The notes under the pieces were generated by a model. The model ran no database searches, had not been told where the DNA came from, and saw only the letters and a list, made by a program, of their open reading frames with translations. A program made the translations under genes and the position numbers. Below, piece after piece: positions 8,012 through 36,961 of a DNA stretch of 64,000 nucleotides. The DNA is taken from the NCBI GenBank assembly GCA_034180415.1, contig JAXFOK010000005.1, positions 65,093-129,092 of the forward strand, written 5' to 3'. Each line of letters starts with the position of its first letter. Within the stretch, counting starts at the first letter, position 1. This DNA is from Bdellovibrionota bacterium (lineage in GTDB: Bacteria > Bdellovibrionota_C > UBA2361 > CAKMMH01).

Positions 8012-8024
8012 AATGAGCATAATT

Positions 8025-10457
8025 ATGAAAAAATTATTATATACAAAATTTATATTTGTTTTTCTGGTAACTTATTTAGTTATATTTTCTGTAGTTTTTA
8101 AAAATGACTATTTAAGTAATATTGATACCACAGAAATTTTAACTGAATGGCAAGTTAACTTTTCACAAATAAAAATATTGTACTATATGTTTCAGTCTGC
8201 GGTATATAGTATTTGCTTGTTGTCATTTATTGTCTTTTTATACAATTATAGCAGCAAAATTTTTAAATTAAAATTATTGATGGAATCTTTAGGAATAATT
8301 AGTATAACCGTAATTTTATTTGGTTATATATATGGCAATTTTTCTTGGGATATTATAAATCTTCCGTTGTTCTTTTATGGAAGTGATGATGCTTATTTTT
8401 TATCTATCGCAAAAAATATTCTAGATGGCAATAGTTTTTGGTTTATAAAAAATTTAGATGCACCATTTGGTACAAGATTGTATGATTTTCCAAATACGTT
8501 GCCTTTTTTTTGCATTTGCGTTCGTGTTTTAGGATTGTTTACAAGTAATGTAATTTTTATAACTAACTTTTATTATTTCTTAACTTTTTTATTAGCCACA
8601 CTCTCGTTTTATATAGTTTTAAGGTTATTTAATATAAATTACTTTTTTTCTATCTTAGGAAGTATTGTATTTTCATTCTCTCAATATCACTTTTATAGAA
8701 ATATTGTACATTTAAATATTTCATCGTTTTTCTCTACGCCCATTGTTTTATACGTGTGCTATTGCATTGCATTTAACAATGATTTTAATAAGAGAGATAA
8801 TCAATTTACCGAAAAGCTAAGGACAATCACAAATATTATAACAATTAGTTTATTAATTACATTTTCTCATATTTATTATATCTATTTTGGATGCGTAGTA
8901 ATTGGTTTTAGCATGATTTGGGCGTTATTTAAAAAAAGATATGTAGCAATAGTAAAATCAATATCTATTCTTTTTTGTATAATAATGTTTGTATTTTGTG
9001 ATTTATTACCATCAATAATATATGGTATTGTCAATACTAATATGATTTCTCATCTTAGACTTCCTTATGATGCGTACGTATATAGTTTGCAATTAGTACA
9101 TTTATTTATGCCTTATCTCACCGAAGGTAAGCATGTTTTTTCGAATATCACTGATGCATATATTCGTTCAGGTATGAGTCAAAGTGAAGCTATGGTTAAT
9201 TACTTAGGAATTCTATCTTTAATTGGATTTGTAATTCTAATTTTGATTTTACTCGTTCCATCATTTAATAATTATATAAGGAAATATGAAGATGAAGGTA
9301 AAAAAGGAATACTAAGTTTTTTTTCGGCAAGCAATATGCTAATACTGTTATTAGGATTACAAAGTGGCATAGGAGTTATCGTAGCACTGTTAGGTTTTAC
9401 AAAAATTCGCGCATATAATAGGGTATCAATATATATATTAATGTATTCAATATTTGCTTTAATTTATATAATGGATATTCTCTATAAGAAATATAATAAA
9501 AAATTAAAAAATTTATATGCAGCTATTATAACAATTTTACTTATATGTTTTCATATTTATGAAACACATTTAACAAATTTTGTACAAAACCAAAATTATA
9601 ATAAAATTGCAATAAGTAATGTTAAGGATTATGCTTACAAGTTAGAAAATTTATACAAAAATGGAGCAAATATTTTACAACTTCCAATAGTAAGTTATCC
9701 AGAAAATTTAACAAATAATTCTTTAACTAATTGTAATTATCAAGTTTTGCCGTACATTTATACTAGTAATATAAAATACAGTTCTGGCGCACTAAATAAT
9801 ACAAAAGAGTATTTTGCACAAAAAGTATTATTTGATATAGATGATATAGAAAATATTTTATTAAATGCGAAAGAATACGGGTTTGATGGAATTAGCGTAA
9901 ATACCGATATGTATAATAATAATTCAATTATTGATAAATTTAATAATATCTTAGGTAACCCTAAAATTATCAGCGATTTAAAAAATATATATTTATACGA
10001 TATAAGAAATTATAAATCTAATAAAAACTTTGAATTGGACAATGTTAATTTTATAGATGATGAAAGATATATTGCTGGCGGTTTTAGTATATTAGAAATA
10101 GGTAAGGATTTTAATATAAGATGGGGAACATTAGAAGGTAAAAAAAAGTCTAAAGGTATTAATTCTTATATTTATTTTCTCCCTCCCCCAAACAAGCCAT
10201 ATAAAATCTTTTTTGATGCAAATTCAGAAATTGATAATACCCTAACAGTTTACGTAAACAATAATAAAATAGATACCTTTAATATCCATAGAGGCGAAAA
10301 TATCTTTGAAACGAAATTAATTAATTTCAATAATATACTAAAACCTTGCATTCTAAAATTAGAACATTCTGCTTCATTTTCTCCAAAAGATATTGATAGC
10401 ACAAGTTTAGATGGGCGGGAGTTGACATTAGCTTATAAACAGATTCGGCTAAAATAG
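8025..10457 (+). CDS. large polytopic membrane protein, paralog A (GT-C / YfhO-like candidate), multi-TM N-terminal domain plus about 300-aa C-terminal extracytoplasmic domain
   Basis: Probable start at ATG 8025 (MKKLLYTKF...) rather than the overlapping 7971. Conserved blocks shared with the two downstream paralogs: NFSWDIINLPLFFYGSDDAYFLSIAKN..GNSFWF..NLDAPFG, FTSNVIFITNFYYFLTF, INYFFSILGSIVFSFSQYHFYRN, C-terminal NCNYQVLPYIYTSNIKYSSGALNNTKEYF...YGFDGISVNTDMY. Confidence 0.6.
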   Translation: MKKLLYTKFIFVFLVTYLVIFSVVFKNDYLSNIDTTEILTEWQVNFSQIKILYYMFQSAVYSICLLSFIVFLYNYSSKIFKLKLLMESLGIISITVILFGYIYGNFSWDIINLPLFFYGSDDAYFLSIAKNILDGNSFWFIKNLDAPFGTRLYDFPNTLPFFCICVRVLGLFTSNVIFITNFYYFLTFLLATLSFYIVLRLFNINYFFSILGSIVFSFSQYHFYRNIVHLNISSFFSTPIVLYVCYCIAFNNDFNKRDNQFTEKLRTITNIITISLLITFSHIYYIYFGCVVIGFSMIWALFKKRYVAIVKSISILFCIIMFVFCDLLPSIIYGIVNTNMISHLRLPYDAYVYSLQLVHLFMPYLTEGKHVFSNITDAYIRSGMSQSEAMVNYLGILSLIGFVILILILLVPSFNNYIRKYEDEGKKGILSFFSASNMLILLLGLQSGIGVIVALLGFTKIRAYNRVSIYILMYSIFALIYIMDILYKKYNKKLKNLYAAIITILLICFHIYETHLTNFVQNQNYNKIAISNVKDYAYKLENLYKNGANILQLPIVSYPENLTNNSLTNCNYQVLPYIYTSNIKYSSGALNNTKEYFAQKVLFDIDDIENILLNAKEYGFDGISVNTDMYNNNSIIDKFNNILGNPKIISDLKNIYLYDIRNYKSNKNFELDNVNFIDDERYIAGGFSILEIGKDFNIRWGTLEGKKKSKGINSYIYFLPPPNKPYKIFFDANSEIDNTLTVYVNNNKIDTFNIHRGENIFETKLINFNNILKPCILKLEHSASFSPKDIDSTSLDGRELTLAYKQIRLK

Positions 10458-10489
10458 GCGATGCAATCTTTGATGCCTCGCCTGTTTTA
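10458..10489 (+). terminator. hairpin plus U-tract immediately after paralog A stop
   Basis: GGCGATGCA-atctttga-TGCCTCGCC stem-loop followed by TGTTTTA. Confidence 0.4.
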
Positions 10490-10544
10490 GCAGCTAGGCG
10501 ACTGAACTACAGTCAATAAAAGTGAAGTGTTTTATTTATAAATC

Positions 10545-10880
10545 TAGTATGCAACAACCCCCCGTAGGGGGTTAATGAAGCGAAGCGGAGCCAGGATGGG
10601 GGGAGCTCGCATAAAAAATGCGACAGCATTTTTTAATGTGCGATTCAACCCATTATAGCAAATGCCCCCCCACACCACGACCCCTTTAGGGATCGACTAA
10701 CAAAATTAAATCGCAATCAATTTAGTAAACATCCCAAATAGAATATCCATTTATATTAGTATAGACAAAACCCCTGTAAAGGGGTTATTAAAGCGAAACG
10801 AGCGTTAGCGAAGTGAAGCGGCGCTAGGGCGTAGTGGCCTAAAGCACAAGCGCTAGCTTGTGCACTCACCACTACGTTAG
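10545..10880. repeat. GC-rich island of REP-like palindromic repeats (CCCC-n-TA-n-GGGG hairpins, each followed by an AGCGAAGCG-type motif) plus a nested compound stem-loop
   Basis: aaCCCCCCGTAGGGGGtt (10556-10573), aaCCCCTGTAAAGGGGtt (10769-10787) and gaCCCCTTTAGGGatc (10679-10694). Each of the first two is followed by ttaatgAAGCGAAGCGgagc / ttattaAAGCGAAACGAGCG. Nested hairpin GTAGTGG-cctaaa-GCACAAGC-gcta-GCTTGTGC-actca-CCACTAC (10831-10875). Composition is visibly GC-richer than the flanks. Confidence 0.5.
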
Positions 10881-10974
10881 AGCTACATATTGTGCATGCT
10901 ACTTGGTTGTCATACAATTATATTATATACTAATTTAAAACTAATTTTAATTAATTCAAGGAATATATGGATTT

Positions 10975-13752
10975 ATGAAGGGTAATATCAAATTTTTGGG
11001 AATTTTTTTTGTCGTTTATGTTTTTATTTTAAGTTTGATATTCAACAATAACTCATTATCTTACCTTAATACTACTAAAATTATAAAAACTTTAAATGTA
11101 ACTAATTTTAATAAATATAAGGTTAATAATAACAATAAAAACTTTGATTTAGAAATTCCCCTTAACCCCTATAATAACGGAACCTCTTATACTGTTTCTC
11201 TTAAATTAAATAACACTTTAAATAAACTATTCAAAACTCATATAAGCTTATATGATGTAAATACAAATAAATTAGCCTATAAGAAACTTTTTAATATAAA
11301 AAAAGGAAGAAGCGTAATTCTTGCTAAAATTTCATACGAAACAAAAGATACAAATTATAAACTAAAAATTGAATCTTCAAATGAAAATATTATAAAAAAT
11401 ATAAAAATTTCTCAAAATAACGTTACACCAAAAATTGTAAATGCTTCCTGCTATGTTTTTCAAGCTTTAATATATAGCATAATTTTATTTGCTTTTATTT
11501 TATTTACCTATTTTCATAGAAAACAAATATTTAATTTAAAAAATATAAGAGATTTTTTTCTAGTAAGCTTAATTACTCTAATACTACTAGGATACATCTA
11601 TAATAACTTTAACTGGGATTTTGTTAATGTACCTATTTATTTTCTAGGCTTAAATGATGCCCACTGCTTAGCTGTACTAAAAAACGCTATGCAAGGAAAT
11701 AGCTATTGGCATATTCCAAACTTAGGAGCACCTTTTGGAACAAATGTTTATTATTATCCAATCCTAATGGGGTTTTATTACTATTTTGGAAGGCTTTTGG
11801 GAATTTTTACGAATAATGTCATTTTTGTAAATAATTTATATTTAATATTAACTTTTATACTTTCTTCTTTTGGGGTTTTTATAATTGCAAGAATTTTTAA
11901 AATTAATTATTTTCTTGCCATTCTCGGAGGCTTGCTTTTTTCAATTTCTCAGAATCATTTAATAAGAAACGGTCTACACGTCCAAATTTCATCATATTTT
12001 GTAAACATAATCGTTTTTTATTACTGTTTTAAAATTGTTAAAGATGAAAAATTCAATAATAAATTAATCTTACTAAATGATAAATTAAAATTATACATAG
12101 GTTTAATCTTAGGAGCTTTCTTACTTGGGTCAGTAGAAATTTATTATGCTTATTTTGGATTGATATTTTTAACTCTAAGTGTGTTTATATCATTATTTAA
12201 TAAAAGATATACCGCAAGCATTAGAGGATTATTATTTATTTTTTTAATATTTATATGTTTAGCAAATAGCTTACTTCCTGCTATCATAAACGCAATTTTA
12301 AATGGAGCTACTAAATCTGCTGTAAGAAGTCCATCTGAAGCTTTTTATTATGGATTAATGCTAGTTCATTTGTTTAAACCGTATAATGTTACTAGCTCTC
12401 ATATTTTTTCTGCTATTTCTAACTCTTATGATAAAGTAATGCCATTTAAAGGAGAAGTGCTTTATAATTATCTTGGAATATTAGGAGGAATAGGATTTTT
12501 ATTATTACTATTATTTTTACTTGTTGAACCCTTTAAAAATATAATACAAAAATATGAAAAGCAAGAAAATAGAGGAACATTAAGTCTTATTTCGATACTA
12601 AATATTTTTGCACTTTTAGTCGGATTTCAAAGTGGTATAGGGATAATAATATCTTTAATGGGGCTTACGCAATTTAGAGCATATAATCGTATTAGTGTTT
12701 ATATCTTACTGTTTTCAGTATTTACACTAATTTATTTACTCGATATCTTCTTTAAGAGAGCCTTTAAAAATAAAACAAACGTATATGTAGCTATCTTTTC
12801 ATTGTTTTTATTATATATTCATATTGTAGATATTAATCCTTCAAATTTAGTTCAAGATTTTAATACAAATAAAGAAAAAGTTAATAATGTAAAAGAGTAT
12901 GCTAAAAACTTAGATGATTACTATAAAGATGGCGCAAAGATTTTACAATTACCTGTTTTATTATTTGTTGATAATTATGTAAGAGATGATTTTACAAACT
13001 GTAATTATCAAGTTTGGCCATATCTTTTTACAAAAAATATTAGGTATAGTTTTGGCGCATTTAAAAATACAAAAGAGTTTTTTATGCAAAATGCACTATT
13101 TGATGATAATAATATTGAAAATGTTGTGTCAAATGCTAAGAATTATGGTTTTAATGGAATAAGCGTAAATACAGATATATATGATAATAGTGATGTCGTA
13201 GCTAGTTTAAAAAACCTTTTAGGTGAACCTAAAATTGTAAGCAAGCTTGGAAACATATTATTGTTTGATTTAAAGGATTATAAATCAAATAAGGAAGTGC
13301 ATTTTAAAAATATTAATTTAATAGAAAACGATAGTAATATTATTAGTGGATTTAGTGGATTAGAAAGAGGAAAAGATTTTTATATAAGATGGGCGGTTTT
13401 AGATGAAAATTTTAACTTAAAGAAAAATAATGGCATAAATTCTTATATTTATTATATTCCTCCAAAAGGTAAGTCATATAAGATTGTTTTAAATGTTCAC
13501 TCTGAAATTGATAATACATTAAAGGTATACGTAAATAATAATAAAGTAGGGGATTTTAAAATTGAAAAAGGGGATAGTATTTTTGAGACCAAAACAATAT
13601 TAAAAGGGAGCGGGGCTAAAAAATTAGAACCTAGTGTGTTAATGTTAGAACATAGTAAGTCTTTTAGACCAAGCAGTTTTGATAATAAATCAATAGATAA
13701 AAGAATATTAACATTAGCATATAAGGAAATCTTGGTTAAAATTTTAGAGTAA
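10975..13752 (+). CDS. large polytopic membrane protein, paralog B (925 aa), with an extra N-terminal extracytoplasmic module
   Basis: Shares all conserved blocks with paralog A (NFNWDFVNVPIYFLGLNDAHCLAVLKN..GNSYWH..NLGAPFG; NCNYQVWPYLFTKNIRYSFGAFKNTKEFF; YGFNGISVNTDIYD). Also carries an N-terminal about 150-aa region (LDLEIPLNPYNNGTSYTVSLKLNN...) absent from A. SD sequence AAGGA 11 nt upstream. Confidence 0.6.
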   Translation: MKGNIKFLGIFFVVYVFILSLIFNNNSLSYLNTTKIIKTLNVTNFNKYKVNNNNKNFDLEIPLNPYNNGTSYTVSLKLNNTLNKLFKTHISLYDVNTNKLAYKKLFNIKKGRSVILAKISYETKDTNYKLKIESSNENIIKNIKISQNNVTPKIVNASCYVFQALIYSIILFAFILFTYFHRKQIFNLKNIRDFFLVSLITLILLGYIYNNFNWDFVNVPIYFLGLNDAHCLAVLKNAMQGNSYWHIPNLGAPFGTNVYYYPILMGFYYYFGRLLGIFTNNVIFVNNLYLILTFILSSFGVFIIARIFKINYFLAILGGLLFSISQNHLIRNGLHVQISSYFVNIIVFYYCFKIVKDEKFNNKLILLNDKLKLYIGLILGAFLLGSVEIYYAYFGLIFLTLSVFISLFNKRYTASIRGLLFIFLIFICLANSLLPAIINAILNGATKSAVRSPSEAFYYGLMLVHLFKPYNVTSSHIFSAISNSYDKVMPFKGEVLYNYLGILGGIGFLLLLLFLLVEPFKNIIQKYEKQENRGTLSLISILNIFALLVGFQSGIGIIISLMGLTQFRAYNRISVYILLFSVFTLIYLLDIFFKRAFKNKTNVYVAIFSLFLLYIHIVDINPSNLVQDFNTNKEKVNNVKEYAKNLDDYYKDGAKILQLPVLLFVDNYVRDDFTNCNYQVWPYLFTKNIRYSFGAFKNTKEFFMQNALFDDNNIENVVSNAKNYGFNGISVNTDIYDNSDVVASLKNLLGEPKIVSKLGNILLFDLKDYKSNKEVHFKNINLIENDSNIISGFSGLERGKDFYIRWAVLDENFNLKKNNGINSYIYYIPPKGKSYKIVLNVHSEIDNTLKVYVNNNKVGDFKIEKGDSIFETKTILKGSGAKKLEPSVLMLEHSKSFRPSSFDNKSIDKRILTLAYKEILVKILE

Positions 13753-13866
13753 CTTTACAAATGTTTTAGATTTTCAATTTTTAATAAATTACTTTATAAT
13801 ATTAATTATTGATAACTATTCAAAAATATTTAATTTTTTCTATATTATATTTTTTAGATTTTATTT

Positions 13867-16659
13867 ATGAAAAAACTTTCTTATTTATTTTTATTTATTT
13901 TTATTTTGTCTTTTAGCTTAATATTAAGTCTAGTTTTTTATAGAAACCCATTATCAAATATTACAAGGACTAAAATTGTAAAAAGTTTTGGTAATACTAA
14001 TTTAAAAGATATTCAAAGAAATAGTGATAATGATAAATTAGACTTAGAGATTCCCCTTAATCCTAATAATAATGGTAATTCTTTTACCGCATCAATTAAT
14101 CTTAATAATTCATTTGATAAGGAAGGCGATATATTAATAAGCTTATATGAAAGAGATACAAATAAACTAATATATGATAAGCATTTTAATATTATAAAAG
14201 GGGAAAGTGTAATATTTCCTAAAATATTTTATGAAAATAAAGATATAAGTTATATTTTAAAAATTAAAGCTGAAAATAAAGAAATTTTAAAAAATATTGT
14301 AATTTTTCAAAATGAAATAACTTTAAAATTCATAAATTCAATCTGCTATATTTTTCAAGCATTACTATATACGCTAATATTTTGTTCTTTAATTGCATTT
14401 TTATATTGTTATAAAGCAAGAATATTTAATATTAAAAATATTAGTATCTTTATTATAACTAGTACAATAGTTTTAACATTATTTGGATACCTATATAATA
14501 ATTTTAATTGGGACATAGTTAATGTTCCTTTATATTTAGTCGGTATTGATGATTTTCATTTCTTATCCGTTGCGAAAAATGCCGTTGATCGAAATAGTTT
14601 TTGGTATATGAATGATATGGGGGCACCATTTGGAGTTGCAAGGTATAACTTCCCAATGCTTATGGCATTTTACTATGATTTTTGTTATTTCTTTGGATTT
14701 TTTACTAATAATGCAATTTTTATCACTAATTTATATTATATATTAACTTTTATTTTGGCTGTGTTTGGTTTTGTTTTAATAGCAAAAGAATTAAAAATTA
14801 ATTATTATCTTGCAGTTCTTGGTGGAATTATATTTTCATTTTCTCAATATCATATATTTAGAAGTACACATCATCTTACAGCATCTTCTTATTTTGTCGT
14901 AACCTTAGTTTTATATTTTTGTTTACATATTGTTTTAAAAGATAAATTTAATAATTGGAATTTAAAAATTGCAGATAAAATTAAGATATATTCTAGCTTA
15001 ATACTTAGTAGCTTTTTGATTGGGTCTGTAGATATATTTTATGCGTATTTTGGATGTGCATTTATCGCGTTATGTTTACTGATGGCATTATTTAGTAAGA
15101 GATATATTGCAAGTCTTAGAGGTTTATTTTTCATAATAATGATTTTACTAGTTCTTGTAAACAATTTATATCCATCAATATTAAATAGTATAATTCATGG
15201 GACGACCAAAACATCTATGCGAGATCCCTATGAGGTTTTTTTCTATGGATTAAGTTTAGTACACCTATTTATGCCAAGAACTTTTGGTGAATTTCACATA
15301 TTTTCGTGGTTAACACAGTCTTATAATAATTCAAGATTTTTTAGAAGCGAGGCAACAGCTAGTTATCTTGGTATAATAGGTATTATAGGATTTTTAGTTC
15401 TCTTATCTGTTTTACTTATAGATAGTTTTAGAAAAATTCTTCAAAAGTATGAAGAAAATTCTAATAAGGGAATGTTAAAATTCTTATCTAGGTTAAATAT
15501 TTTTGCATTACTTCTTGGATTACAAAGCGCAATAGGTGTGTTTGTCGCATTAGTTGGTTTTACTAAGGTTAGAACTTATAATCGTATTTCAGTCTATATA
15601 TTATTATTTTCGATACTTACAACCATTTATTTGTTTGATATTTTCTTTAAAAAATTTTTTAAAAATTTTAAACCAGTCTCTAATCAGATTTGTCTTATAA
15701 TTTTATGTATTGGATTATTGTTTATTCACATAAAAGATACTTATTTAGTAAAATTTCCTCAAAATTTTGACGCTAATAATAAGAAAGTTAGCATAGTTAA
15801 AAAATATGCCACAAATATTAATAAACATTATAAAAATGGTGCCATGATTTTACAATTGCCTATTCTTACATATCCAGAAAATTATGTATCACAAAAGCTA
15901 ACTAATTGTAACTTTCAAGTGTTTCCATATCTTTTTACAAAAAATATAAAATGGAGTCATGGAGCATTAAATCACACCAATGAGTCTTTTTTCCAGAAAA
16001 GTTTATTTGGCTCTGATGATATTGAGAATGATATTATCAATGCAAAGATTCAAGGTTTTGATGGAATTAGTATAAATACTGATATTTATGATTATACTGA
16101 CATTTTAGCGTCTGTTAAAAAAATTTTAGGAAAACCACTTTTTGTAAGTAAGAATAATAAATTATATTTTTTTGATTTAACTAATTATAGAATTGATAAG
16201 CTAGCTAATGTTAATAACATAAATTTTATCAAGGATGAATTATATTTAGGTGATGGTTGGAGTGATTTATGGCCACCAAGAGATGTTCAAAGTAGATGGG
16301 CATTTGTAGAGAGTAATAAAACGAAAGCAAAAAATAAAAATTTAGGGGGAAGCACATATGTTAGGTTTATTTCTTATGCTAAATCACCATATAAAATTGT
16401 AATTAAAGCTTCATCACCTATAAAAAATCATTTAAAAGTTTATCTAAATAATTCTATTATCGGAGATTTTTCAGTTAATAAAGGTGATAACGTATTTGAA
16501 ACAAAATATATTTATGAAGATTCTTCAAAGAATCTTTATGAACCTAACTTAATTAAGTTAGAACATTCATTATCGTTTAAACCGAGTGAGATTTATAAAA
16601 AAAGTCGTGATCATAGGTCGTTGACTTTAAAATATAATGAGATTAGCTTGAGAGATTAA
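13867..16659 (+). CDS. large polytopic membrane protein, paralog C (930 aa), same architecture as B
   Basis: LDLEIPLNPNNNGNSFTASINLNN; NFNWDIVNVPLYLVGIDDFHFLSVAKN..RNSFWY..DMGAPFG; NCNFQVFPYLFTKNIKWSHGALNHTNESFF; QGFDGISINTDIYD. Confidence 0.6.
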   Translation: MKKLSYLFLFIFILSFSLILSLVFYRNPLSNITRTKIVKSFGNTNLKDIQRNSDNDKLDLEIPLNPNNNGNSFTASINLNNSFDKEGDILISLYERDTNKLIYDKHFNIIKGESVIFPKIFYENKDISYILKIKAENKEILKNIVIFQNEITLKFINSICYIFQALLYTLIFCSLIAFLYCYKARIFNIKNISIFIITSTIVLTLFGYLYNNFNWDIVNVPLYLVGIDDFHFLSVAKNAVDRNSFWYMNDMGAPFGVARYNFPMLMAFYYDFCYFFGFFTNNAIFITNLYYILTFILAVFGFVLIAKELKINYYLAVLGGIIFSFSQYHIFRSTHHLTASSYFVVTLVLYFCLHIVLKDKFNNWNLKIADKIKIYSSLILSSFLIGSVDIFYAYFGCAFIALCLLMALFSKRYIASLRGLFFIIMILLVLVNNLYPSILNSIIHGTTKTSMRDPYEVFFYGLSLVHLFMPRTFGEFHIFSWLTQSYNNSRFFRSEATASYLGIIGIIGFLVLLSVLLIDSFRKILQKYEENSNKGMLKFLSRLNIFALLLGLQSAIGVFVALVGFTKVRTYNRISVYILLFSILTTIYLFDIFFKKFFKNFKPVSNQICLIILCIGLLFIHIKDTYLVKFPQNFDANNKKVSIVKKYATNINKHYKNGAMILQLPILTYPENYVSQKLTNCNFQVFPYLFTKNIKWSHGALNHTNESFFQKSLFGSDDIENDIINAKIQGFDGISINTDIYDYTDILASVKKILGKPLFVSKNNKLYFFDLTNYRIDKLANVNNINFIKDELYLGDGWSDLWPPRDVQSRWAFVESNKTKAKNKNLGGSTYVRFISYAKSPYKIVIKASSPIKNHLKVYLNNSIIGDFSVNKGDNVFETKYIYEDSSKNLYEPNLIKLEHSLSFKPSEIYKKSRDHRSLTLKYNEISLRD

Positions 16660-20400: not shown

Positions 20401-21003
20401 TTACATATTAGACTTTTTTTGTGGTAAAATGCTCATAAGCATATTTAAACTTTTTAAGTTAGTTTCTGAAATTTCGATAATTTTATTTATAAGTTGTATT
20501 AGATTATTTTTTGATGCAATAAGTTTTCTTTTTGAATCTTCAAAACCAAGTATCACTAAAAGTGAAAATAGACAATCATAAAGGTGTTTAAAAATTTTTA
20601 ATTCCTCACTTTCTTTATTAATAACATTTAGTGTGTTTTTTATTAAGTTAAATGCATTTTTACATTCGTCATATTCTTTTATTAAATTATTTGTACATTC
20701 CATTAATGTCATGCTTACACATAATTTTTTAAAATTCTCACGTAAATTTTTATAATTTTCGATAAATTTAAAATCTTTAAGTTTATTTAAATTTTCATCT
20801 GATTCGATTATTTCAAATTGGCAAATATCAAGGACTTCAGGCGCTCCTTGCCCTTTTTTTGCACGTTTAACATTTGGTGCAAAAAGAGAAATTTTCTTAT
20901 TTTCTGATGTTAATATAGTAAAAATCTTATTATAATCTCCAGATTCTGCGTATCTTAATACAACGCCATCAATTTTTTTTGTTGATATATTTAAATTTTT
21001 CAT
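20401..21003 (-). CDS. recO: RecO-like recombination mediator (short, lacks the C-terminal zinc finger)
   Basis: N-terminal OB-fold region GVVLRYAESGDYNKIFTILTSENKKISLFAPNVKRAKKG aligns with the RecO N-domain (..VLh.r...E.s.i...lT.e.G.......G.r..). At 200 aa, with no CxxC...CxxC motif present. Confidence 0.4.
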   Translation of the reverse strand: MKNLNISTKKIDGVVLRYAESGDYNKIFTILTSENKKISLFAPNVKRAKKGQGAPEVLDICQFEIIESDENLNKLKDFKFIENYKNLRENFKKLCVSMTLMECTNNLIKEYDECKNAFNLIKNTLNVINKESEELKIFKHLYDCLFSLLVILGFEDSKRKLIASKNNLIQLINKIIEISETNLKSLNMLMSILPQKKSNM

Positions 21004-25408: not shown

Positions 25409-26129
25409 TATGACATTTTTTAGTATGAAAATGCGTGCGAGTCGTACAGATGGCGAAACGACTTTTCATGTATCTGGTGCCGAAAAGATACTTTCTGAAC
25501 CAGAGCTTGTCGTGAATGCAAGGGCATTGATTGAACGGGCACTTCATCATGCAAAGGGAGATGCTGATTATATTTAGTTGAAAATAGAAAAAGCTACACC
25601 GGAAAGTATAGAATATATTGATGCACTACCTGTTCATACTATTGAAGTGGATGATGTAGCATAAGGGCACGAGGCGATTTTGTCACTCTTAATGAAGCTT
25701 GGATTGAAAAATGGTGCTGACATTATGAAAAAATTTCATGAAACTTATGCAATGCGTGGTGCAATGTTATTAGATGTTGACTCTTTGGATCGTTTAGAGC
25801 CAGACCACGCTCGTGGAATACGTGCCACTTATATGGATTCAGAGCACTCTCTATTACGTCCTGTTGATGATGGTAAAAATCATTTTCAATAAGCCATTGT
25901 CCTTGCTAGCAAGGTGTCAAATACACCACACATTATAGCTGAAATCTGTATTTTCGATGATCCTGACTACGTGACAGGTTATGTCGCTTCAAAGCAGACA
26001 GGTTATGTGCGTATAACGAAGCTTAAGGAAATAGGTAATCCAGACGATGGGCGTATTTTCCTTTATCGCGGTCAAAGAGAAGAGGTAAAAATACTATCAA
26101 ATATCTTGAGAAGTAAATTGTCTTAGTAA
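25409..26129 (+). pseudogene. bioW: 6-carboxyhexanoate-CoA ligase (pimeloyl-CoA synthetase) BioW, full length in one frame but interrupted by three in-frame stop codons
   Basis: Single-frame translation MTFFSMKMRASRTDGETTFHVSGAEKIL...KGDADYI*LKIEK...VDDVA*GHEAIL...GKNHFQ*AIVLASKVSNTPHIIAEICIFDDPDYVTGYVASKQTGYVRITKLKEIGNPDDGRIFLY... aligns end to end with Bacillus-type BioW (YSVRMRAS...HISGGERL; AVVAELCWSDDPDYITGYVAGKKMGYQRITAMKEYG..GCRVFF). Internal stops: TAG ending at 25576, TAA at 25661 and TAA at 25893. The region is GC-richer than the genome background. Confidence 0.7.
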
Positions 26130-26132
26130 AAA

Positions 26133-26586
26133 ACGCACCAGATATACAAATTTCAGAAACTGCATACAGATCCGTGGCAGGTTCTTGCTAACAATTTAGA
26201 GCAACTAAAAAATGCAGGACTTTACCGAAGTATTACGACTATCGACTCGCCTCAAAGTGTTCATGTAACTATAGGTGGCAAGAATTTCTTAATGCTTGCT
26301 TCTAATTCCTACCTTGGATTGACGGATGAACCTCGTGTCTGCCATGCTGCATCTGATGCGACGTTACGATTTCGGTGCAGGGGCTGGTGGGTCACGGTTC
26401 ACTACAGAGAGTTTGCAACTTTATGACGAGCTTGAAAAGGCTCTCTCAGATTTTAAAGGAACTGAAGTAACACTACTTTTTAACACGGGTTATATGGCAA
26501 ATGTTGGTATATTGTCAGCCCTTAAATTAAATCGTAAATACCCTGTAATTTCTCGAATCAAATGCACATTTGTGCAAAAATTTTGA
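26133..26586 (+). pseudogene. bioF: 8-amino-7-oxononanoate synthase BioF, N-terminal about 150 aa only, with one frameshift and a premature stop
   Basis: Continues in the bioW frame: ...WQVLANNLEQLKNAGLYRSITTIDSPQSVHVTIGGKNFLMLASNSYLGLTDEPRV. After a frameshift near 26338 it reads HLMRRYDFGAGAGGSRFTTESLQLYDELEKALSDFKGTEVTLLFNTGYMANVGILSAL, which matches the BioF blocks NYLGL...FGTGSSGSRLTTGN...LEKKIA.FK.TEAALLFSSGYLANVGVLSSL. The frame ends at 26586 and native AT-rich sequence resumes. Confidence 0.65.
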
Positions 26587-26684: not shown

Positions 26685-26990
26685 TTAATCTTCATTATCA
26701 AAATAAGGCCTAATTATTTTATATGGTTCTTTGCCGTGGATGCCAGGCCTGTAATAGTATATGTATCCTTTAGGTTCGTGCTTTTCAAGTGCAAGCTTCT
26801 TTTTTTCTTTTTCTGCTTCTGCTTTGGCTTTTTTACTTCTTTCAACTCTTGCATGTTTTGTATCTTTAATAAATCCTATAAACCAAAATACACCACTAAT
26901 TAATGAAAGGATAATTATAATTAAAAATATTAAACTTCCTTCACCTTCACCTTTTTGATTTCTATGACATTTACTAAAAAATCTAAGCAT
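26685..26990 (-). CDS. small membrane protein, hypothetical (one TM helix plus a Lys/Glu-rich tail)
   Basis: ORF last in a same-strand trio (SurA-like, UvrA-like, then this one); hydrophobic segment LIFLIIIILSLISGVFWFIGFI. Confidence 0.3.
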   Translation of the reverse strand: MLRFFSKCHRNQKGEGEGSLIFLIIIILSLISGVFWFIGFIKDTKHARVERSKKAKAEAEKEKKKLALEKHEPKGYIYYYRPGIHGKEPYKIIRPYFDNED

Positions 26991-27042: not shown

Positions 27043-28944
27043 TTAAATTGCTTCTAATATTATCGTATTATTTTCTATAGAACTTTCAAGTATATCTATA
27101 AATCGTAATTTTTGAGAATTACTTAAGAATGAAAAGGCATTTTTAATGATATAAAGATTTGAATTTTGTAACTCATTGAAATTGCTAAATATGTTAATTG
27201 TATTAATAATATTGCTAGTCAAATTATCCGTTTGGAAATTAAGCCTTAATTCCCCAAGTTTCATTTTGTTTAGTAGATCAATTTGATAGTATATCTTTTT
27301 AAAATTCTTAAAAAATTCTGATGCCTCAGTTATATTAAAGTTGTAAACTTCTTTTAAAGTTACATTTTTAAATTTTAAATTTAAAATAGTGTCATTAAAT
27401 AAATTTCCATTACATTTAGGACATATCTTATATATACCTTCTATTTCCTTAATCTTTCCTTTACCTTGGCAAATTTTGCACAAATACTTATTGCTTGTTT
27501 TTAAGAAAAAATCTTTTTTTTGAAGTCCTATAACCTTAGCATCTGTAGTTTGTAAAAAAATGTCATTAATCTTACTAAAGATATCTAAAAGATTCATTAA
27601 TGTTGTACTTTTAAAAAATAATGGATAAATAATATTAACCTTTTTATATAGATTACTTTCTTTTGCTAAATTAATAATATTTTCTAAATTTTTGTAAGAA
27701 ATAATATTAACTTTATTTTTAGTTATTGTTGTTTGCAGTTTAACACTATTTCTTTGCTTAATTATTAAATTGCTATCTGTATGCTTAGTTAAGTTATAAA
27801 CCTTATCAAAATTAAGTGAAAATATATCATTATTATTTTCAAATATTATTATAGATATATTCTTTAATTCTTTTAGGATTTGTTCTAAATATTTTCTCTC
27901 TATAAATGAAAGGGGATTTTGAATTATTAGGATATCATTTTTATTAATTTTATTTTTTATATCTATATAATTTAAAATATAACTTAATGTTAAATTGTTT
28001 ATTTGAGATAAAAAATTTAAAGATTCTAAACCAAAATTAATAAAATTTGCTAACAAATTTTTTATTCGTATATTCTCAATTTTTGAAATTAAGATATTAA
28101 ATGGATCGTTAAGTAAAGAAGATAAACTTATATTGTTATAAAAAATATTACTTAAAGAATTTAAATCTGAATTTTTATTGAAATTATATTTTGAAGTAGG
28201 AAAATCAAATTCGTATGAACAATTTTTGCAAATAAATTTATCATTAATGTTATAAATTTTAAAATTATTATTTTTAGTAGAGAATATAAAGAAATCATTA
28301 GTTTGGTTTTTATAATCGTTTAAAATGCTATTAAATTGATTTTTAAATGTAGTAAAATTTGATAGTGATATTTTATTTTTTACGATGTAAAAATTATTTA
28401 TTTCCTTAGTGTTTATATCATCAATGTCAATTATGCTGTCATTATAGATTATATTAAATATGCCTTTTTTAATAAGCTCTTTAACGTTAATGTTGTCAGT
28501 TATGCATTTATTTTCACCAATAGCTATAATATCACCTTGATAATTATCAAAAATATTTTTTGTTAAACTTTGAGTACTATTTTTTTCTAATATATGACCA
28601 CATTTGGGACATTTGTAAGATAATGCGGGGTCATTTTTTAATATTTCATTTAATACATTAAATTTGTTTAAAATATTAAAAGAGTCATTTTGATAATCTA
28701 AACAATAAATGTTGCTATAAAAATTATTAATTTGGCTATTAATACTTAATGGGGGAATGATTCCAAAATTTATAAGTTTATAATTTTCATTTTTAATTAA
28801 AGTATAGTTTTTTAAGTTCTTATATAAAAAAAACGTATCATTTAACTTTGATGAAAAAAGTAAAGAATGCTTATGGTATTCGAAAGAAAACTTATCTATT
28901 GAAAAATTTAATGTATCGTTATTCTTTAATCCTTTATTAACCAT
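27043..28944 (-). CDS. UvrA-derived protein with conserved zinc-finger/helix region but degenerate ATPase motifs (ATPase-dead UvrA relic), 633 aa
   Basis: C-terminal CKICQGKGKIKEIEGIYKICPKCNGNLFNDTILNLKFKNVTLKEVYNFNITEASEFFKN aligns with the UvrA zinc-finger 3 region [63 protein letters not shown]. Walker A position reads YPLFFKSTTLMN (expected GVSGSGKSTLIN). The signature position reads LNFQTDNLTSN (expected LSGGEAQR). The Walker B position reads LYIIKNAF (expected LYILDEPT). The ORF stops at the H-loop position. Additional CxxC pairs are CPKCGH and CKNC. Confidence 0.6.
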   Translation of the reverse strand: MVNKGLKNNDTLNFSIDKFSFEYHKHSLLFSSKLNDTFFLYKNLKNYTLIKNENYKLINFGIIPPLSINSQINNFYSNIYCLDYQNDSFNILNKFNVLNEILKNDPALSYKCPKCGHILEKNSTQSLTKNIFDNYQGDIIAIGENKCITDNINVKELIKKGIFNIIYNDSIIDIDDINTKEINNFYIVKNKISLSNFTTFKNQFNSILNDYKNQTNDFFIFSTKNNNFKIYNINDKFICKNCSYEFDFPTSKYNFNKNSDLNSLSNIFYNNISLSSLLNDPFNILISKIENIRIKNLLANFINFGLESLNFLSQINNLTLSYILNYIDIKNKINKNDILIIQNPLSFIERKYLEQILKELKNISIIIFENNNDIFSLNFDKVYNLTKHTDSNLIIKQRNSVKLQTTITKNKVNIISYKNLENIINLAKESNLYKKVNIIYPLFFKSTTLMNLLDIFSKINDIFLQTTDAKVIGLQKKDFFLKTSNKYLCKICQGKGKIKEIEGIYKICPKCNGNLFNDTILNLKFKNVTLKEVYNFNITEASEFFKNFKKIYYQIDLLNKMKLGELRLNFQTDNLTSNIINTINIFSNFNELQNSNLYIIKNAFSFLSNSQKLRFIDILESSIENNTIILEAI

Positions 28945-28958
28945 AAAAAGTTAGTAAT

Positions 28959-29888
28959 CTAAAATTTTTTATCTATAGAATAATTTTTATAAATTTCTTT
29001 TGAAAAGTAAGAATCAATAGCATCTTTTAAATGTTCTTCTTCAAGTTTTGCTTTTATAATTCTCTTTTCTTCTTCTGTCGGCTTTTTTGTCGCATCTTTT
29101 TTGGCAACTTGGAATATGTAATATGCATTTTCTGTGTCAACAATTTTTGATACTTCATTTTCGCTAAGTTGAGAAATTGCATTAAATATTTCATTTGATA
29201 ATTCATTTAACTCAAATTCACCTAAATACCCTCCATTTTTTGCATCCGGAGTTTCTGAATATTTTTTAGCTACTTCTTTAAAATCATCATTTTTAAGAGC
29301 TTCTAAAATATCTTTTAAAACTTTTAAGCTTTCAGCCTCAGTCTTATTACCTTTTAGTATGCAAATTTGATTAAGTGAAATTTTACTATTTAATAAATTA
29401 TTTTCATTAACCTTTTTAATATAGGAATTAATTTCTTCATCGGTTACGGCTGCTCCATTTCTAATAATATTGGAAGCAATTTTTGATTTTAAAATATCAC
29501 TTCTTATTTGTTCTTTATAATTTTTAAAAGAAATATTTTGTTTTTTTAATTCTTCTTTGAAAGCAGGGACTGTTAATGAATTTTTGTTTGCTATTTGCGA
29601 AATGTAACTATCTAGTTCTTTATCGGAAACACTTAGTCTCTTTTTTTGACCTTCTAATTCAACTATCGTGTCTAGTATAGCAGCATCTACAATTTTACTA
29701 GCCTGAAGATTGTTTTTTAAATCATCATATGTCAAATGTTTGTTATATTTTTTATTTATATCTGATAATGTTATAGGTTTATCGTTAATTGTTGCAACTA
29801 TAGCATCTAAAAAAAGTTCAGCATTTGCATTAATAATTGGCGTAAATAAAATAACGGCTAATACTAAGAAACGTAATTTTTTTATCAT
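28959..29888 (-). CDS. SurA/PrsA-family periplasmic foldase (SurA N-domain plus parvulin-type PPIase domain) with signal peptide
   Basis: Signal peptide MIKKLRFLVLAVILFTPIINANA; SurA_N-like AIVATINDKPITLSDI; parvulin block ETPDAKNGGYLGEFELNELSNEIFNAISQLSENEVSKIVDTENAYYIFQV. Confidence 0.55.
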   Translation of the reverse strand: MIKKLRFLVLAVILFTPIINANAELFLDAIVATINDKPITLSDINKKYNKHLTYDDLKNNLQASKIVDAAILDTIVELEGQKKRLSVSDKELDSYISQIANKNSLTVPAFKEELKKQNISFKNYKEQIRSDILKSKIASNIIRNGAAVTDEEINSYIKKVNENNLLNSKISLNQICILKGNKTEAESLKVLKDILEALKNDDFKEVAKKYSETPDAKNGGYLGEFELNELSNEIFNAISQLSENEVSKIVDTENAYYIFQVAKKDATKKPTEEEKRIIKAKLEEEHLKDAIDSYFSKEIYKNYSIDKKF

Positions 29889-30129: not shown

Positions 30130-31620
30130 GTGGAAGAGAAAAAATATTACACATATCAACGCGAAAATAATATAGCTAGTAATAATTCTATAAACCAAAA
30201 TATACCTCCTTTATTTACAAAAAATTTAGAGCTTAGACAAGCGTTAAATTCGATGTATGCAGCTTGGATGCCTTTAAATGAAGTAGTTTATAATTCGATA
30301 AAAAGTAAAGTTATCCAAAGAGTATATGATAATAATAGAGGAAAGTTCATTCAGGATATTTCTGCGGATTTTACAATTTTATCTTTAATCTTAAGAGAAA
30401 TGCCTAGTATTATTACTTCAAGAGAGAGCGTAGATCCTGTAAAATTTTTAAAATCGTGCGATATTGAACAGTTTAAAAATATCTTTTTAAAAGATGCAAG
30501 TGATTATTCGTTTCATTCATTTGATGACATTAATTATTCTCAAGCTGTAATGTATAAATATACTGCAAATTCTTCTCAGATTTCACAAAAGTATGCAATC
30601 CTTAATAATCAAGATCCATTATGGATTTACACGATATCAGTTTTAAGAGGACTTGCAAACTGCTTGCTTTCTTGGAACTATCCTCGTTTGTTTAGTAGGG
30701 GATTAAAAGTACAAGCTAATCAAGAAGGTACTCTTGATGATTTCATCGAAAGAGCATTAGGGTTTTCTCCAAATGATTTAATCGTTGAGCTTATTACGAC
30801 TTGGAATTTAAATGATAATGTAAGAGATTTAGTTGATAATACAAGAGCCGCTAACAATAAGGATACTTTAGCATATAAATGTATATACGACTCTGAAATG
30901 GTAGCAAAACTTCATGAACCAAAAGTTTTTCCTGAAGTTATTAATAAACTTGATGATTATGAAGACGAAATTTCAGGTACAAAAAATATATCAAAAGTTA
31001 TAAGTAAAGAAGTAACTAAAGTTTGCGAATACTATGAAAAATATGCACCTGAAATTTTTGATTTAACTATGTCTTTAAAAGATAAAATTAAAGAAGCAAT
31101 TTTAGCTCATGCTGATAATAAGCTTCGTAAAAATACTTTCATTTTCCAGTGTGATGATAGTATTTTTAATAGTTTTAAAAAAGTTTATGTAAACATGTCT
31201 GATGATAAATTTTCAAAGAAAGCTTTAGAAATTTTAAGATACGAAACTATAAATAAAGCAGGTTTTGAAAATGGTTGCTTATATGTTTATAACGAGCAAA
31301 AAAATACACTAATTCCAACATTAAAAATTGGTGAAAGAGAGTTATTTAAATATAGAGAAGTTTTATGTGAAGAAAATATTTTATCTTCTAGTATGATTTC
31401 TGATGCACTTAAATGTACTGTCCCCATAAGAAATTTTGGAGTCTCCGTTACTGGTAAATACGTAAGTTATATCTGTGCTTCATTTGGTAATTCGTTTAAA
31501 AGAGGAGTACTTTATCTAGAATATTCAAATGATGATGAAGATATGGATGGCGAAATGATGTTACGTTTTAAAGCTATTCTAAAGTGTCTAAATGAGTGTT
31601 TAGGCTTTAGCGTAAATTAA
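30130..31620 (+). CDS. hypothetical protein, 496 aa (possible HDOD-like N-terminus and GAF-like C-terminus, weak)
   Basis: Long ORF, soluble, no firm motif. Confidence 0.4.
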   Translation: MEEKKYYTYQRENNIASNNSINQNIPPLFTKNLELRQALNSMYAAWMPLNEVVYNSIKSKVIQRVYDNNRGKFIQDISADFTILSLILREMPSIITSRESVDPVKFLKSCDIEQFKNIFLKDASDYSFHSFDDINYSQAVMYKYTANSSQISQKYAILNNQDPLWIYTISVLRGLANCLLSWNYPRLFSRGLKVQANQEGTLDDFIERALGFSPNDLIVELITTWNLNDNVRDLVDNTRAANNKDTLAYKCIYDSEMVAKLHEPKVFPEVINKLDDYEDEISGTKNISKVISKEVTKVCEYYEKYAPEIFDLTMSLKDKIKEAILAHADNKLRKNTFIFQCDDSIFNSFKKVYVNMSDDKFSKKALEILRYETINKAGFENGCLYVYNEQKNTLIPTLKIGERELFKYREVLCEENILSSSMISDALKCTVPIRNFGVSVTGKYVSYICASFGNSFKRGVLYLEYSNDDEDMDGEMMLRFKAILKCLNECLGFSVN

Positions 31621-33020: not shown

Positions 33021-33491
33021 ATGCCAAGAAAGAAAAGAGATTTTACAAGAGAAATTATAGCAGATCCAAAATATGGTGAAGTTATCGTTGCTAAGTTTAT
33101 AAACAATCTTATGGTTGATGGAAAGAAGAACGTTGCTGAGCGTGCTTTCTATACTGCTATGGATAAAATCGAAGCTAAAACTAGCAAGAACCCAATTGAA
33201 GTTTTTATGAAAGCTTTAGATAATATTCGTCCATTAGTTGAAGTTCGTTCAAGACGTGTTGGTGGTGCTAACTATCAGGTTCCTGTTGAAGTTTATCCAA
33301 AAAGAGCTCAGGCGCTTTCTATTAGATGGCTTTTAACTGCTGCTAATAATAGATCAGAAAGAAATATTTCTGATAGACTTGTTGGTGAAATTTTAGATGC
33401 AATAGATAACAGAGGTGGGGCTATTAAGAAGAGAGAAGATACTCATAAGATGGCAGAAGCTAATAAAGCATTTTCACATTTTAAATTTTAA
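33021..33491 (+). CDS. rpsG: 30S ribosomal protein S7
   Basis: [50 protein letters not shown]...: S7 consensus. Confidence 0.97.
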
Positions 33492-33539: not shown

Positions 33540-35633
33540 GTGGCAAAAAGAGATCTTCACAAGTTACGTAACATTGGTATCATGGCTCACATCGATGCTG
33601 GTAAGACAACTACTACAGAAAGAATTTTATACTACACAGGTGTTAACTATAAAATAGGTGAAGTACATGATGGTGCTGCAACTATGGACTATATGGACCT
33701 AGAGCAAGAAAGAGGTATTACGATTACTTCTGCTGCAACAACTTGTTTCTGGCAAGGTTCTGGGCATCAATATGATAAGCATCAAATTAATATTATCGAT
33801 ACTCCAGGGCACGTAGACTTTACAGTTGAAGTAGAAAGAAGTTTAAGAGTGCTAGATGGCGCAGTTGCCGTATTTGATGGCGTAGACGGAGTTCAACCAC
33901 AATCAGAAACAGTATGGCGTCAAGCAGATAAATTTAGCGTTCCTAGAATTTGTTTCATTAATAAAATGGATAAGACTGGTGCTAATTTTAATTATGCTAC
34001 AAGCACAATTAGAGAAAAGCTAGGAGCAAATGCTGTAAGAGTTCAGCTTCCAATAGGTGCTGAATCAAATTTAAAAGGTTGCATTGACCTAGTAAAAATG
34101 AAAGGTATTATTTTTGAAGATGCTGATAAGGGATCAACTTTTAACTATATTGATATTCCAGCTGATTTAGTTGATGAAGCGAATGAAGCAAGAGAACAAC
34201 TTTTAGAAGCTGTTTCAGAAATAGATGATGCTTTAATGGAAAAATTCCTTGAAGGGCAAGAAATTTCAGAAGAAGAAATTAGAGCTGCAATTAGAAAGGG
34301 AACACTTGCGTTAAAAATATTCCCAGTGTTTGTTGGTAGTGCATTTAAAAACAAAGGTGTTCAACCACTTCTAGATGGTGTTATTGATTATTTACCTTCA
34401 CCATTAGATATTCCTCCTGTAGAAGGAGTTAATCCAAATGATCCAGAAGGTGCACCTATTACAAGAAAAGCAGATGAGGAAGAACCTTTCTCAGCTCTTG
34501 CATTTAAAATCATTACTGACCCTTATGTTGGTGTGCTTACTTTCTTTAGAGTTTATTCAGGTAAAGTAACAGCTGGTGCCACAATTTATAACGCTACTCA
34601 AGGTAAGAAAGAGAGAATGGGTAGAATTTTAAGAATGCACGCTAACGATAGAGAAGAATTAAAAGAATTAGGTGCAGGTGAAATTGGTGCTGCTGTTGGT
34701 TTAAAAGAAACAGTAACAGGTGATACTTTATGTATGCAAGAAACACCAATCTTACTTGAAAACATTACATTCCCAGAACCAGTTATTAAGATTGCAATTG
34801 AACCAAAGACAAAAGCTGATGAAGAAAATATGGGTGTTGCATTAATGAAGCTTTCAAAAGAAGATCCATCATTATATGTAAGTACAGACCAGGAGTCAGG
34901 ACAAACAACAATTGCTGGTATGGGTGAACTTCACCTTGATGTTATTGTTCAAAGATTAAAAAGAGAATTTAATGTTGAGACTATAACTGGTAAGCCTCAA
35001 GTTGCTTATAGAGAAACAATTAACTCTAAGGTTGAGCATGAATATAAATATGCTAAGCAATCAGGTGGTCGTGGTCAATATGGACATGTACTTTTACGTC
35101 TTGAGCCACTTGAACCAGGTAGCGGATTTGAGTTTGTTGATGAAATTAAAGGTGGTGTTATTCCTAAGGAATATATTCCTGCAGTTAAAGCCGGTGTTGA
35201 AGAAGCACTTAAGGGTGGTGTGCTTGCAGGTTACCCTGTAATAGATTTAAAAGTTGCATTATATTATGGTAGTTTCCACGAGGTTGACTCAAGTGAAATG
35301 GCTTTCAAAATTGCAGGTTCTATTTGTGTTAAGGAAGGTGCTAAGAAAGCTGGTATGACACTTCTTGAGCCAATAATGAAAGTTGAGGTGGTAACACCTG
35401 ATGAATATTCAAGCAATATCGTTGGAGACTTAAATAGAAGAAGAGCTAAGATTATGGGTATGGAACCTCGTTCAGGCGCAACGATTATTAATGCAGAAGT
35501 TCCATTATCTGAGATGTTTGGATATGCAACTGACTTAAGATCAGGCTCTCAAGGTAGAGCAAGTTATTCGATGGAGTATTCTCATTATGCACCAGTGCCT
35601 GCACAGGTAGCAGAAGGGATAATTAATAAATAA
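33540..35633 (+). CDS. fusA: elongation factor G; initiates at GTG
   Basis: GTG at 33540-33542 with AGGAGAATAAAAAG as the SD sequence. [46 protein letters not shown] and the EF-G domains IV-V. Confidence 0.97.

Positions 35634-35764: not shown

Positions 35765-36961
<1,197 letters not shown>

Follow-up and report, generated by a model that had tools for sequence, protein, structure and literature searches.

To our knowledge, both ATPase sites are needed by every UvrA-family protein characterised so far (class I, class II/UvrA2, Ecm16, DrrC), and a literature search found no UvrA described as a pseudoenzyme. In heterodimeric ABC exporters and CFTR, one nucleotide site is non-canonical yet still able to bind ATP, and catalysis goes on at the other. 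The subject of the present analysis is a UvrA-like gene in a 64,000-nucleotide stretch (the window) of contig JAXFOK010000005.1 from a Bdellovibrionota bacterium, whose 633-residue product we regard, at somewhat better than even odds, as a lineage-specific pseudo-enzyme, namely a shortened descendant of class I UvrA in which none of the four ATP-site halves survives and which (relaxed) purifying selection maintains as a folded protein.

The dimer interface of UvrA lies in ATP-binding domain I (PMC12796330). DNA is contacted most extensively by signature domain II, with the hairpin of zinc module 3 (Zn3) as the damage-specific element (PMC7835731, PMC12796330). UvrA cannot bind DNA without four basic residues, these being R712, R722, R724 and R730 in E. 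coli and R725, K735, R737 and R743 in Mycobacterium tuberculosis (PMC3025350, PMC3167621), and UvrB and Mfd are contacted through the pair R216/E222 (PMC3025350). Class II UvrAs (Deinococcus UvrA2, 2VF7; Ecm16, 7SH1; DrrC) lack the UvrB-binding domain and keep the ATPase sites and the insertion domain (PMC3167621, PMC10192343).

Descent from UvrA and loss of the ATP sites

The 633-codon open reading frame (ORF; Table 1) begins with ATG, and no other frame of the same segment stays open for more than 65 codons, which leaves it as the sole long ORF there and confirms the ORF of the initial annotation. The drift toward Asn, Ile and Lys described in that annotation is likewise borne out, with a GC content of 19.3% against a window mean of 29% and with N, I, K, F and Y together making up 54.7% of residues, the most extreme value among 14 window genes compared. 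The protein is basic (net charge +18). An exact look-up returned no identical entry, the database holding variants that are 99% identical. No uvrA, uvrB, uvrC or mfd is present in the 64-kb window, where tblastn with UvrAs finds the UvrA-like gene alone, and the PADLOC anti-phage defence models gave zero matches for 4 proteins (the UvrA-like protein and its neighbours).

Derivation from UvrA, which had been proposed from the sequence, was recovered by comparisons of profiles and folds. The NCBIfam UvrA equivalog models match residues 453-628 (PRK00349 454-628, TIGR00630 453-623) with E values of 2e-17 to 5e-17, the whole-protein scores of TIGR00630 and NF001503 (61.5 and 62.6 bits) falling far short of their curated cutoffs (729.8 and 1147 bits). 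Of the two profiles named alongside the annotation, TIGR00630 thus matches significantly and ABC_tran (PF00005) does not; Pfam also gave no UvrA_inter and only zinc-ribbon noise below threshold. A phmmer search of PDB sequences retrieved Thermotoga maritima UvrA (3pih_A, E 6e-20), with a weak second piece pairing residues 111-252 with UvrA 119-265. When the family profile was compared by hhalign with a ten-sequence UvrA alignment, residues 425-622 were matched to UvrA 678-883 (probability 98.75%, E 1.5e-16); the whole-length comparison gave this C-terminal match alone, and the homology of residues 109-247 to UvrA 119-260, the Zn1/UvrB-binding domain (probability 92%, E 6.7e-7), was seen only with a separate N-terminal profile. 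An AF2 (AlphaFold2) model built from six family sequences alone, although weak (pLDDT 60.5), retrieved UvrA structures in Foldseek (E 6e-16) as well as the isolated UvrB-binding domains 4dfc_D and 3fpn_A (TMt 0.54-0.58). Among 129 columns invariant in 15 UvrAs, 33 are deleted in the UvrA-like protein and 27 of the 96 remaining match; 17 UvrA-invariant columns, mostly zinc ligands and structural Gly and Pro, are kept in all six family members. The protein is thereby shown to be homologous to and colinear with UvrA, and across the C-terminal third the statistics for its derivation are solid. Because a UvrB-binding domain is present, the ancestor would have been a class I UvrA, of the type that acts in nucleotide excision repair (NER).

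The catalytic elements are absent or replaced throughout. The Walker A segment of nucleotide-binding domain I (NBD-I), GLSGSGKSS in UvrA, is reduced to SSKL-----ND, that of NBD-II is deleted between KNKVNI and NLENIIN, and in the alignments both segments (GSGKS[ST] in UvrA) are deleted in all family members. In the first half, signature LSGGE has become L318-TLSY, the Walker B D-E has become Q342-N343 and the H-loop His has become N370. The corresponding changes in the second half are L575-TSN for LSGGE, K601-N602 for D-E within L597-YIIKNAF (LYILDEPT in UvrA), and A632 for the His, where E631-A632-I633 aligns with I-E-H-N; the ORF stops one residue past the H-loop position, and ~60 C-terminal residues of UvrA are missing. 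Between Zn1 and signature I, the insertion (DNA-binding) domain with Zn module 2 (~150 residues) has been lost, as have the linker region between the NBDs and the C-terminal part of NBD-I, and the total length is 633 residues as compared with ~940 for UvrA, the deficit that had been pointed out. These alignments uphold the earlier description of the protein as ATPase-dead, including the reading of LTSN and KNAF as remnants of the signature and Walker B motifs and of the H-loop as the end of the ORF. One assignment was wrong: FFKSTT, taken for Walker A, comprises residues 443-448 and aligns with UvrA IGRTPRSNP downstream of the old P-loop, P441 matching the nearly invariant Pro of UvrA DQSPIGR. 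The loss of Walker A itself stands, as that of NBD-II is deleted.

The residues adjoining the lost catalytic positions are in part preserved (P344, E369, E631), and the degenerate Walker B of NBD-II is strongly conserved in the family, with I599, I600, N602, F604, F606, L607 and S608 invariant. Elsewhere in the window, an ABC-F gene (51981..53804) keeps normal motifs and scores normally against ABC-F models, so that AT drift or composition alone does not erase such motifs. Since the P-loops are physically absent, correction of sequencing errors could not restore the ATPase, and the protein is predicted to be unable to bind or hydrolyse ATP.

Both remaining zinc modules and the predicted tandem-NBD scaffold are shown by the alignments to have been retained. 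In zinc finger 3, for which the alignment given in the initial annotation was reproduced, C489, C492, G494, G496, C508, C511 and G513 are invariant with 15 UvrAs, and all eight zinc-ligand Cys (C112/C115/C239/C242 and C489/C492/C508/C511) are invariant across six aligned orthologs. Y55, G61 and P64 of the N-terminal helix region are also retained. In a 99% identical variant (P0001, L011:2273-4174), the first CxxC of Zn module 1 is altered by C115R, the position being Cys in the other sampled cluster members; this may be a tolerated or a deleterious polymorphism, or else an assembly error.

The order of domains is that of class I UvrA (TIGR00630/PRK00349; 2R6F, 3PIH, 9GXK), that is NBD-I, Zn1 with the UvrB-binding domain, signature I, NBD-II and signature II with Zn3; the eight zinc-ligand Cys lie at homologous positions, and the profile and fold matches are significant. 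The differences from class I are the missing ATP-site motifs, insertion domain with Zn2, linker region and C-terminal residues, together with replacements among the DNA-contact Arg/Lys that are described below. As in the degenerate sites of other ABC proteins, canonical Walker B, H-loop or signature residues have been lost within a retained ABC fold; unlike in those proteins, neither composite site survives and the P-loops themselves are deleted. The initial annotation had compared the protein with a UvrA2-like class. That assignment was rejected, since class II shows the reverse pattern (PMC3167621): the present family keeps a UvrB-binding-like domain and lacks the insertion domain and the ATP sites.

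A closer parallel in architecture is provided by "mini-UvrA" proteins of 696, 702 and 763 residues (P0131, P0196 and P0198), in which the insertion domain and Zn2 are deleted at the same boundaries, the linker is shortened and the C-terminus is truncated. Unlike in the UvrA-like protein, the Walker A, signature and Walker B motifs are intact in both halves; the mini-UvrAs are encoded outside the SurA-like trio described below, in another lineage whose RpoC is ~62% identical to that of the window. The mini-UvrA gene directly follows rpoC in the P0131 and P0196 loci (L010 and L012) and overlaps it in L012. P0131 aligns with the UvrA-like protein over 316 residues, as compared with ~180 for ordinary UvrAs, and in a tblastn search its residues 305-618 match window positions 28053..27238 (E 3e-19), reaching the region of signature domain I. 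With P0131 as query, the matches were the small family to which it belongs, followed by generic UvrAs (several of them labelled Bacillota, Mycoplasmatales or Izemoplasmatales), none being from the clade of the window. A second, different degenerate UvrA-like protein, P0170 (L009:2365-4560; 731 residues; contig GC 29%), has lost the NBD-I motifs and both signatures, retains a GASGTGKE remnant at Walker A of NBD-II, and contains Zn3. Mini-UvrAs, P0170 and the UvrA-like family, which need not form one clade, suggest that UvrA has been reduced to graded degrees in small AT-rich genomes. P0170 and P0131 were rejected as positional links to the SurA-like trio, their gene contexts being different, and P0008-P0010, the best matches among real UvrAs, were rejected as the intact uvrA of the clade, as they belong to an unrelated uvrB-uvrA locus of another lineage.

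Orthologs and selection on the protein

The family is confined to a small group of uncultured AT-rich bacteria. A search of a 5.8-billion-protein set returned full-length relatives of 608-643 residues that are 39-47% identical to the query, and beyond them a gap leads down to ordinary UvrAs matching only its C-terminal 28%. Five representatives of the family came out of a HMMER scan that covered all of 1.84 billion cluster representatives, after which scores fall from 629 to 177 bits. Pairwise identity among six sequences is star-like, at 38-49%. The 90%-identity cluster of the window protein has 49 members; 13 of the 15 listed are 633 residues long and the other two are 609 and 452 residues.

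An intact ORF occupies the same trio at six loci, the recovered ones being L001/L003 (a 349-kb contig of a metagenome-assembled genome, MAG, labelled Bdellovibrionota), L002, L004 (labelled uncultured Bdellovibrionales), L011 and L014. At every recovered locus the UvrA-like gene lies between a SurA-like gene and a gene for a small membrane protein, and dnaJ follows beyond the trio wherever the contig extends that far (L001/L003, L002 and L014). MAGs with the gene include GCA_050952645.1 (JBMNLI01), CAZHFA01 and those encoding MDY6089733.1 and MDD7473046.1, and ERZ27280736 and ERZ1461643 are among the source samples. In the window the three genes are on one strand with gaps of 14 and 52 nucleotides, so the tight same-strand trio of the initial annotation is real; its description as an odd context does not hold, the trio being a conserved operon-like arrangement across relatives. 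The small membrane protein has eight homologs only, each of which adjoins a UvrA-like gene where look-ups show the context.

Conservation within the family is concentrated in particular parts of the protein. There are 119 positions invariant among the six sequences, in spite of their low overall identity, with long invariant stretches that include IFLQTTDAK and YIIKNAFSFLS, and indels between orthologs are all in frame. Residues 425-633 are the best conserved part (mean pairwise identity 0.42-0.66 per 30-residue block), with peaks at residues 451-540 (the start of signature II and Zn3; 0.53-0.66) and 571-630 (0.52-0.60); conservation is also raised at residues 151-180, the core of the UvrB-binding-like domain (0.54), and at 301-330 (0.50). 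The invariance of zinc ligands and of long peptide blocks alike means that what selection preserves is the protein, beyond a mere open frame.

Estimates of the ratio of nonsynonymous to synonymous substitution (dN/dS, omega; NG86) are 0.37, 0.29 and 0.44 against L002, L001 and L004, and are rough because dS against these diverged orthologs (~1.1-1.4) is near saturation. In comparison with the 99% identical L011, five synonymous and five nonsynonymous changes give an omega of 0.22, close to the 0.24 of the SurA-like gene. The chance that a random ORF of 633 codons arises at the composition of the gene is 6e-30, and in a neutral simulation 0.85% of ORFs were still open at 0.05 substitutions per site and none of 2000 at 0.1 or more. 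A bioW/bioF pseudogene that is broken by stops lies ~460 bp past the UvrA-like stop, beyond the gene for the small membrane protein; it shows what real decay looks like in this genome and is a natural control for the UvrA-like ORF.

Possible function and competing explanations

If the UvrA-like protein is a pseudo-enzyme under selection, ATP-driven damage discrimination or verification and the UvrB-loading cycle would be impossible, because the P-loops are absent, and it would most likely act as an ATP-independent binding or scaffold protein through its preserved zinc-stabilised modules. The leading guess is ATP-independent nucleic-acid binding, with DNA the more likely ligand, since conservation is highest in signature II with Zn3 and the protein carries a positive net charge. 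Proteins, perhaps including a new partner, could dock at the UvrB-binding-domain-like module. The initial annotation had offered repurposing as an ATP-independent DNA- or damage-binding factor as one of two readings; repurposing fits better than decay, whereas the DNA- or damage-binding part of the proposal is weakened by the replacements described next, and the label of paralog given there is at most putative. Selection after the full loss of both ATP sites would mean that the UvrA scaffold has a use independent of nucleotide cycling, and a natural "ATP-free" UvrA lets one ask which properties, such as dimerisation, DNA binding by signature II/Zn3 and docking at the UvrB domain, need no ATP. 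Practical impact is limited by the tiny uncultured clade, with five of 1.84 billion cluster representatives.

Several observations, in addition to the near-saturated dS, weigh against this preferred reading. Three of the four DNA-contact residues that are essential in UvrA are replaced (Arg by N460, I472 and D478) and K470 alone is kept, which weakens the guess of DNA binding; D478 is invariant in the family, and K476 and K477 adjoin it. The R216/E222 pair is apparently not conserved either, on a tentative mapping to the E. coli sequence, so that any partner may be new. The second AF2 model is better than the first, but its alignment contained UvrAs and it is therefore biased toward the UvrA fold. 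The UvrA-like gene is also the fastest-evolving and the most mutation-biased in composition of its neighbourhood. Against the close relative L002 it is 47-49% identical, as compared with 72-98% for its neighbours (EF-G 98%, DnaK 96%, DnaJ 93%, the 496-residue neighbour 89%, RecO 88%, the SurA-like protein 75% and the small membrane protein 72%), and its dN is 0.41 versus 0.01-0.17. Its identity to L002 is no higher than to the more distant L001, and the variable positions are therefore probably saturated. Purifying selection on the protein is clearly relaxed. Finally, no Shine-Dalgarno-like sequence precedes the UvrA-like start in the window (28945..28958), L001, L002 or L004. As the start lies close behind the SurA-like stop (9-57 nucleotides across orthologs), the gene is probably expressed at a low level, in coupling with the SurA-like gene upstream. 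In L001 the gene appears to start with TTG.

The other reading offered in the initial annotation was that of an NER gene caught mid-decay, here a uvrA in a reductive genome whose ORF is still open by chance. The extreme AT and N/I/K drift at the lowest GC locally, the highest dN of the neighbourhood, the loss of every catalytic motif and the presence of true gene decay two genes away would all be expected of it. It is nevertheless rejected as very improbable, because the ORF is intact in at least six independently sampled loci and in nearly all listed cluster members, the eight zinc-ligand Cys and the other invariant positions persist across diverged orthologs, indels are in frame, omega is ~0.2-0.4, contrary to neutral decay, a neutral ORF would have closed by 0.1 substitutions per site, and bioW/bioF, a control from the same genome, is shattered. 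Nearly as improbable is an explanation by operon mechanics, according to which the frame stays open only because its translation protects, or is coupled to, expression of the downstream small membrane-protein gene and the protein itself is functionless. Tight spacing, the missing Shine-Dalgarno sequence and very fast sequence turnover agree with this, yet avoidance of stops alone would conserve neither zinc ligands, structural Gly and Pro nor the IFLQTTDAK and YIIKNAFSFLS blocks, and would not hold omega well below 1 or the length within 608-643 residues.

The remaining alternatives accept a functional protein and differ in its role. Because ABC NBDs commonly dock on membrane partners, the UvrA-like protein might lie in the cytoplasm as a pseudo-ABC module attached to the small membrane protein, with an envelope or membrane-tethering role linked to the SurA-like chaperone and no role on DNA. 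The invariance of the trio at all loci examined, the occurrence of the small protein's homologs only with the UvrA-like gene (matching the P0004, P0005 and P0006 loci) and the loss of DNA-contact arginines speak for such a module; we consider it unlikely even so, as adjacent genes count for little as evidence when a genome is compact, each of the three proteins would lie in a different compartment, and the part that is best conserved is UvrA's DNA-binding domain. It is somewhat more doubtful that the protein modulates NER or transcription-coupled repair, either as a heterodimer with an intact UvrA or by titrating UvrB or Mfd through the UvrB-binding-like domain. The fold of that domain and Y55, G61 and P64 in the helix region of the dimer interface (PMC12796330) are retained, and other DNA-repair genes such as recO are present, but the UvrB contacts R216/E222 appear lost on the mapping given above, and fast evolution is unexpected for a partner of the highly conserved UvrB. 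Comparably doubtful is the proposal that the UvrA scaffold has become a structural subunit of a three-part module of SurA-like chaperone, membrane protein and pseudo-UvrA, acting as a nucleoid-envelope tether or in envelope biogenesis. If true, its function would lie wholly outside DNA repair, it would be the first protein of the UvrA fold to work entirely without ATP, and it would serve a reduced-genome, possibly host-associated Bdellovibrionota lineage.

Neighbouring genes and other observations

Table 1. Positions of the UvrA-like gene, its parts, neighbouring genes and mini-UvrA genes (window coordinates unless a locus is named)
Feature	Position	Strand	Remark
UvrA-like ORF, 633 residues plus stop	27043..28944	(-)	putatively derived from class I UvrA, non-catalytic
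Remnant of ATP-binding domain I, residues 1-105	28630..28944	(-)	Walker A deleted; Y55, G61, P64 conserved with UvrA
Zn module 1 enclosing UvrB-binding-domain-like fold, residues 109-247	28204..28620	(-)	C112, C115, C239, C242
Signature domain I and C-terminal part of NBD-I, residues 260-385	27790..28167	(-)	insertion domain and Zn2 deleted just upstream
NBD-II remnant with signature domain II, residues 425-633	27046..27672	(-)	Walker A II deleted
Zn finger 3 module, CxxCxGxG...CxxCxG, residues 489-513	27406..27480	(-)	from alignments with UvrA
Degenerate ABC signature II, LTSNI, residues 575-579	27208..27222	(-)	LSGGE in UvrA
Degenerate Walker B II, LYIIKNAF, residues 597-604	27133..27156	(-)	LYILDEPT in UvrA
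SurA-like periplasmic chaperone/peptidyl-prolyl isomerase, upstream gene of trio	28959..29888	(-)	SurA_N and rotamase domain
101-residue single-pass membrane protein, downstream gene of trio	26685..26990	(-)	Lys/Glu-rich segment
RecO	20401..21003		DNA-repair gene within the window
S7	33021..33491		beyond the 496-residue gene
EF-G	33540..35633		beyond the 496-residue gene
EF-Tu	35765..36961		beyond the 496-residue gene
Mini-UvrA gene	L010:1614-3704		
Mini-UvrA gene	L012:10001-12109		
Mini-UvrA gene	L013:1159-3450		

Within the trio, the SurA-like protein has an apparent N-terminal signal peptide (judged by eye), and the 101-residue membrane protein, which is specific to the lineage, bears a conserved C-terminal GYIYYYRPGIHGKEPY motif. 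The trio is flanked by dnaJ-dnaK-grpE-recO on one side and by a divergent 496-residue gene followed by rpsG-fusA-tuf on the other. Its dS against L002 is 1.0-1.2, about twice that of some flanking genes (0.57 for the 496-residue gene, 0.56 for recO and 0.60 for dnaK); this raised dS, and the fact that the UvrA-like gene is no closer to L002 than to L001, could reflect saturation or a recombinational replacement of the block.

The divergent 496-residue gene (30130..31620, plus strand) lies beside the trio in the four loci that reach there (L001/L003, L002, L014 and L011), the L011 copy being cut by the contig end. Its product is 61-89% identical as measured in L001/L003 and L002 and has a sub-threshold HDOD match only, and the gene has a strong AAGGAG Shine-Dalgarno sequence.

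On the other side of the trio, the spacer between dnaJ and the small gene is ~1.6 kb in the window and ~440 bp in L002, and holds an unrelated 187-residue ORF in L001. In the window it contains the bioW/bioF pseudogene (25410..26586, plus strand), with bioW in three stop-separated fragments (25410-25577, 25680-25892 and 25914-26126) followed by a bioF fragment (26326-26586) that covers model positions 50-103 of 365. The GC content of this region is 34-46%, as compared with 20-25% in adjacent genes, and the region is absent from L002; its appearance is that of a biotin-synthesis fragment acquired recently and already in decay.

Elsewhere in the window, leader RNAs might have been expected, as they are often detected in ribosomal-protein/secY regions; no Rfam family reached its gathering score in the 64 kb despite a long region of this kind, and ARAGORN found no tRNA. 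Three tandem paralogous ORFs (7971..16659, plus strand; 828, 925 and 930 residues), which encode basic proteins that are 44-50% mutually identical and have no NCBIfam match at 1e-5, are a lineage-specific expanded family. In a related MAG, two adjacent ORFs with RCC1/WD40_RLD repeats are found near the trio (L001:5412-6373), and such eukaryote-like repeat proteins hint at a host-associated lifestyle of the clade.

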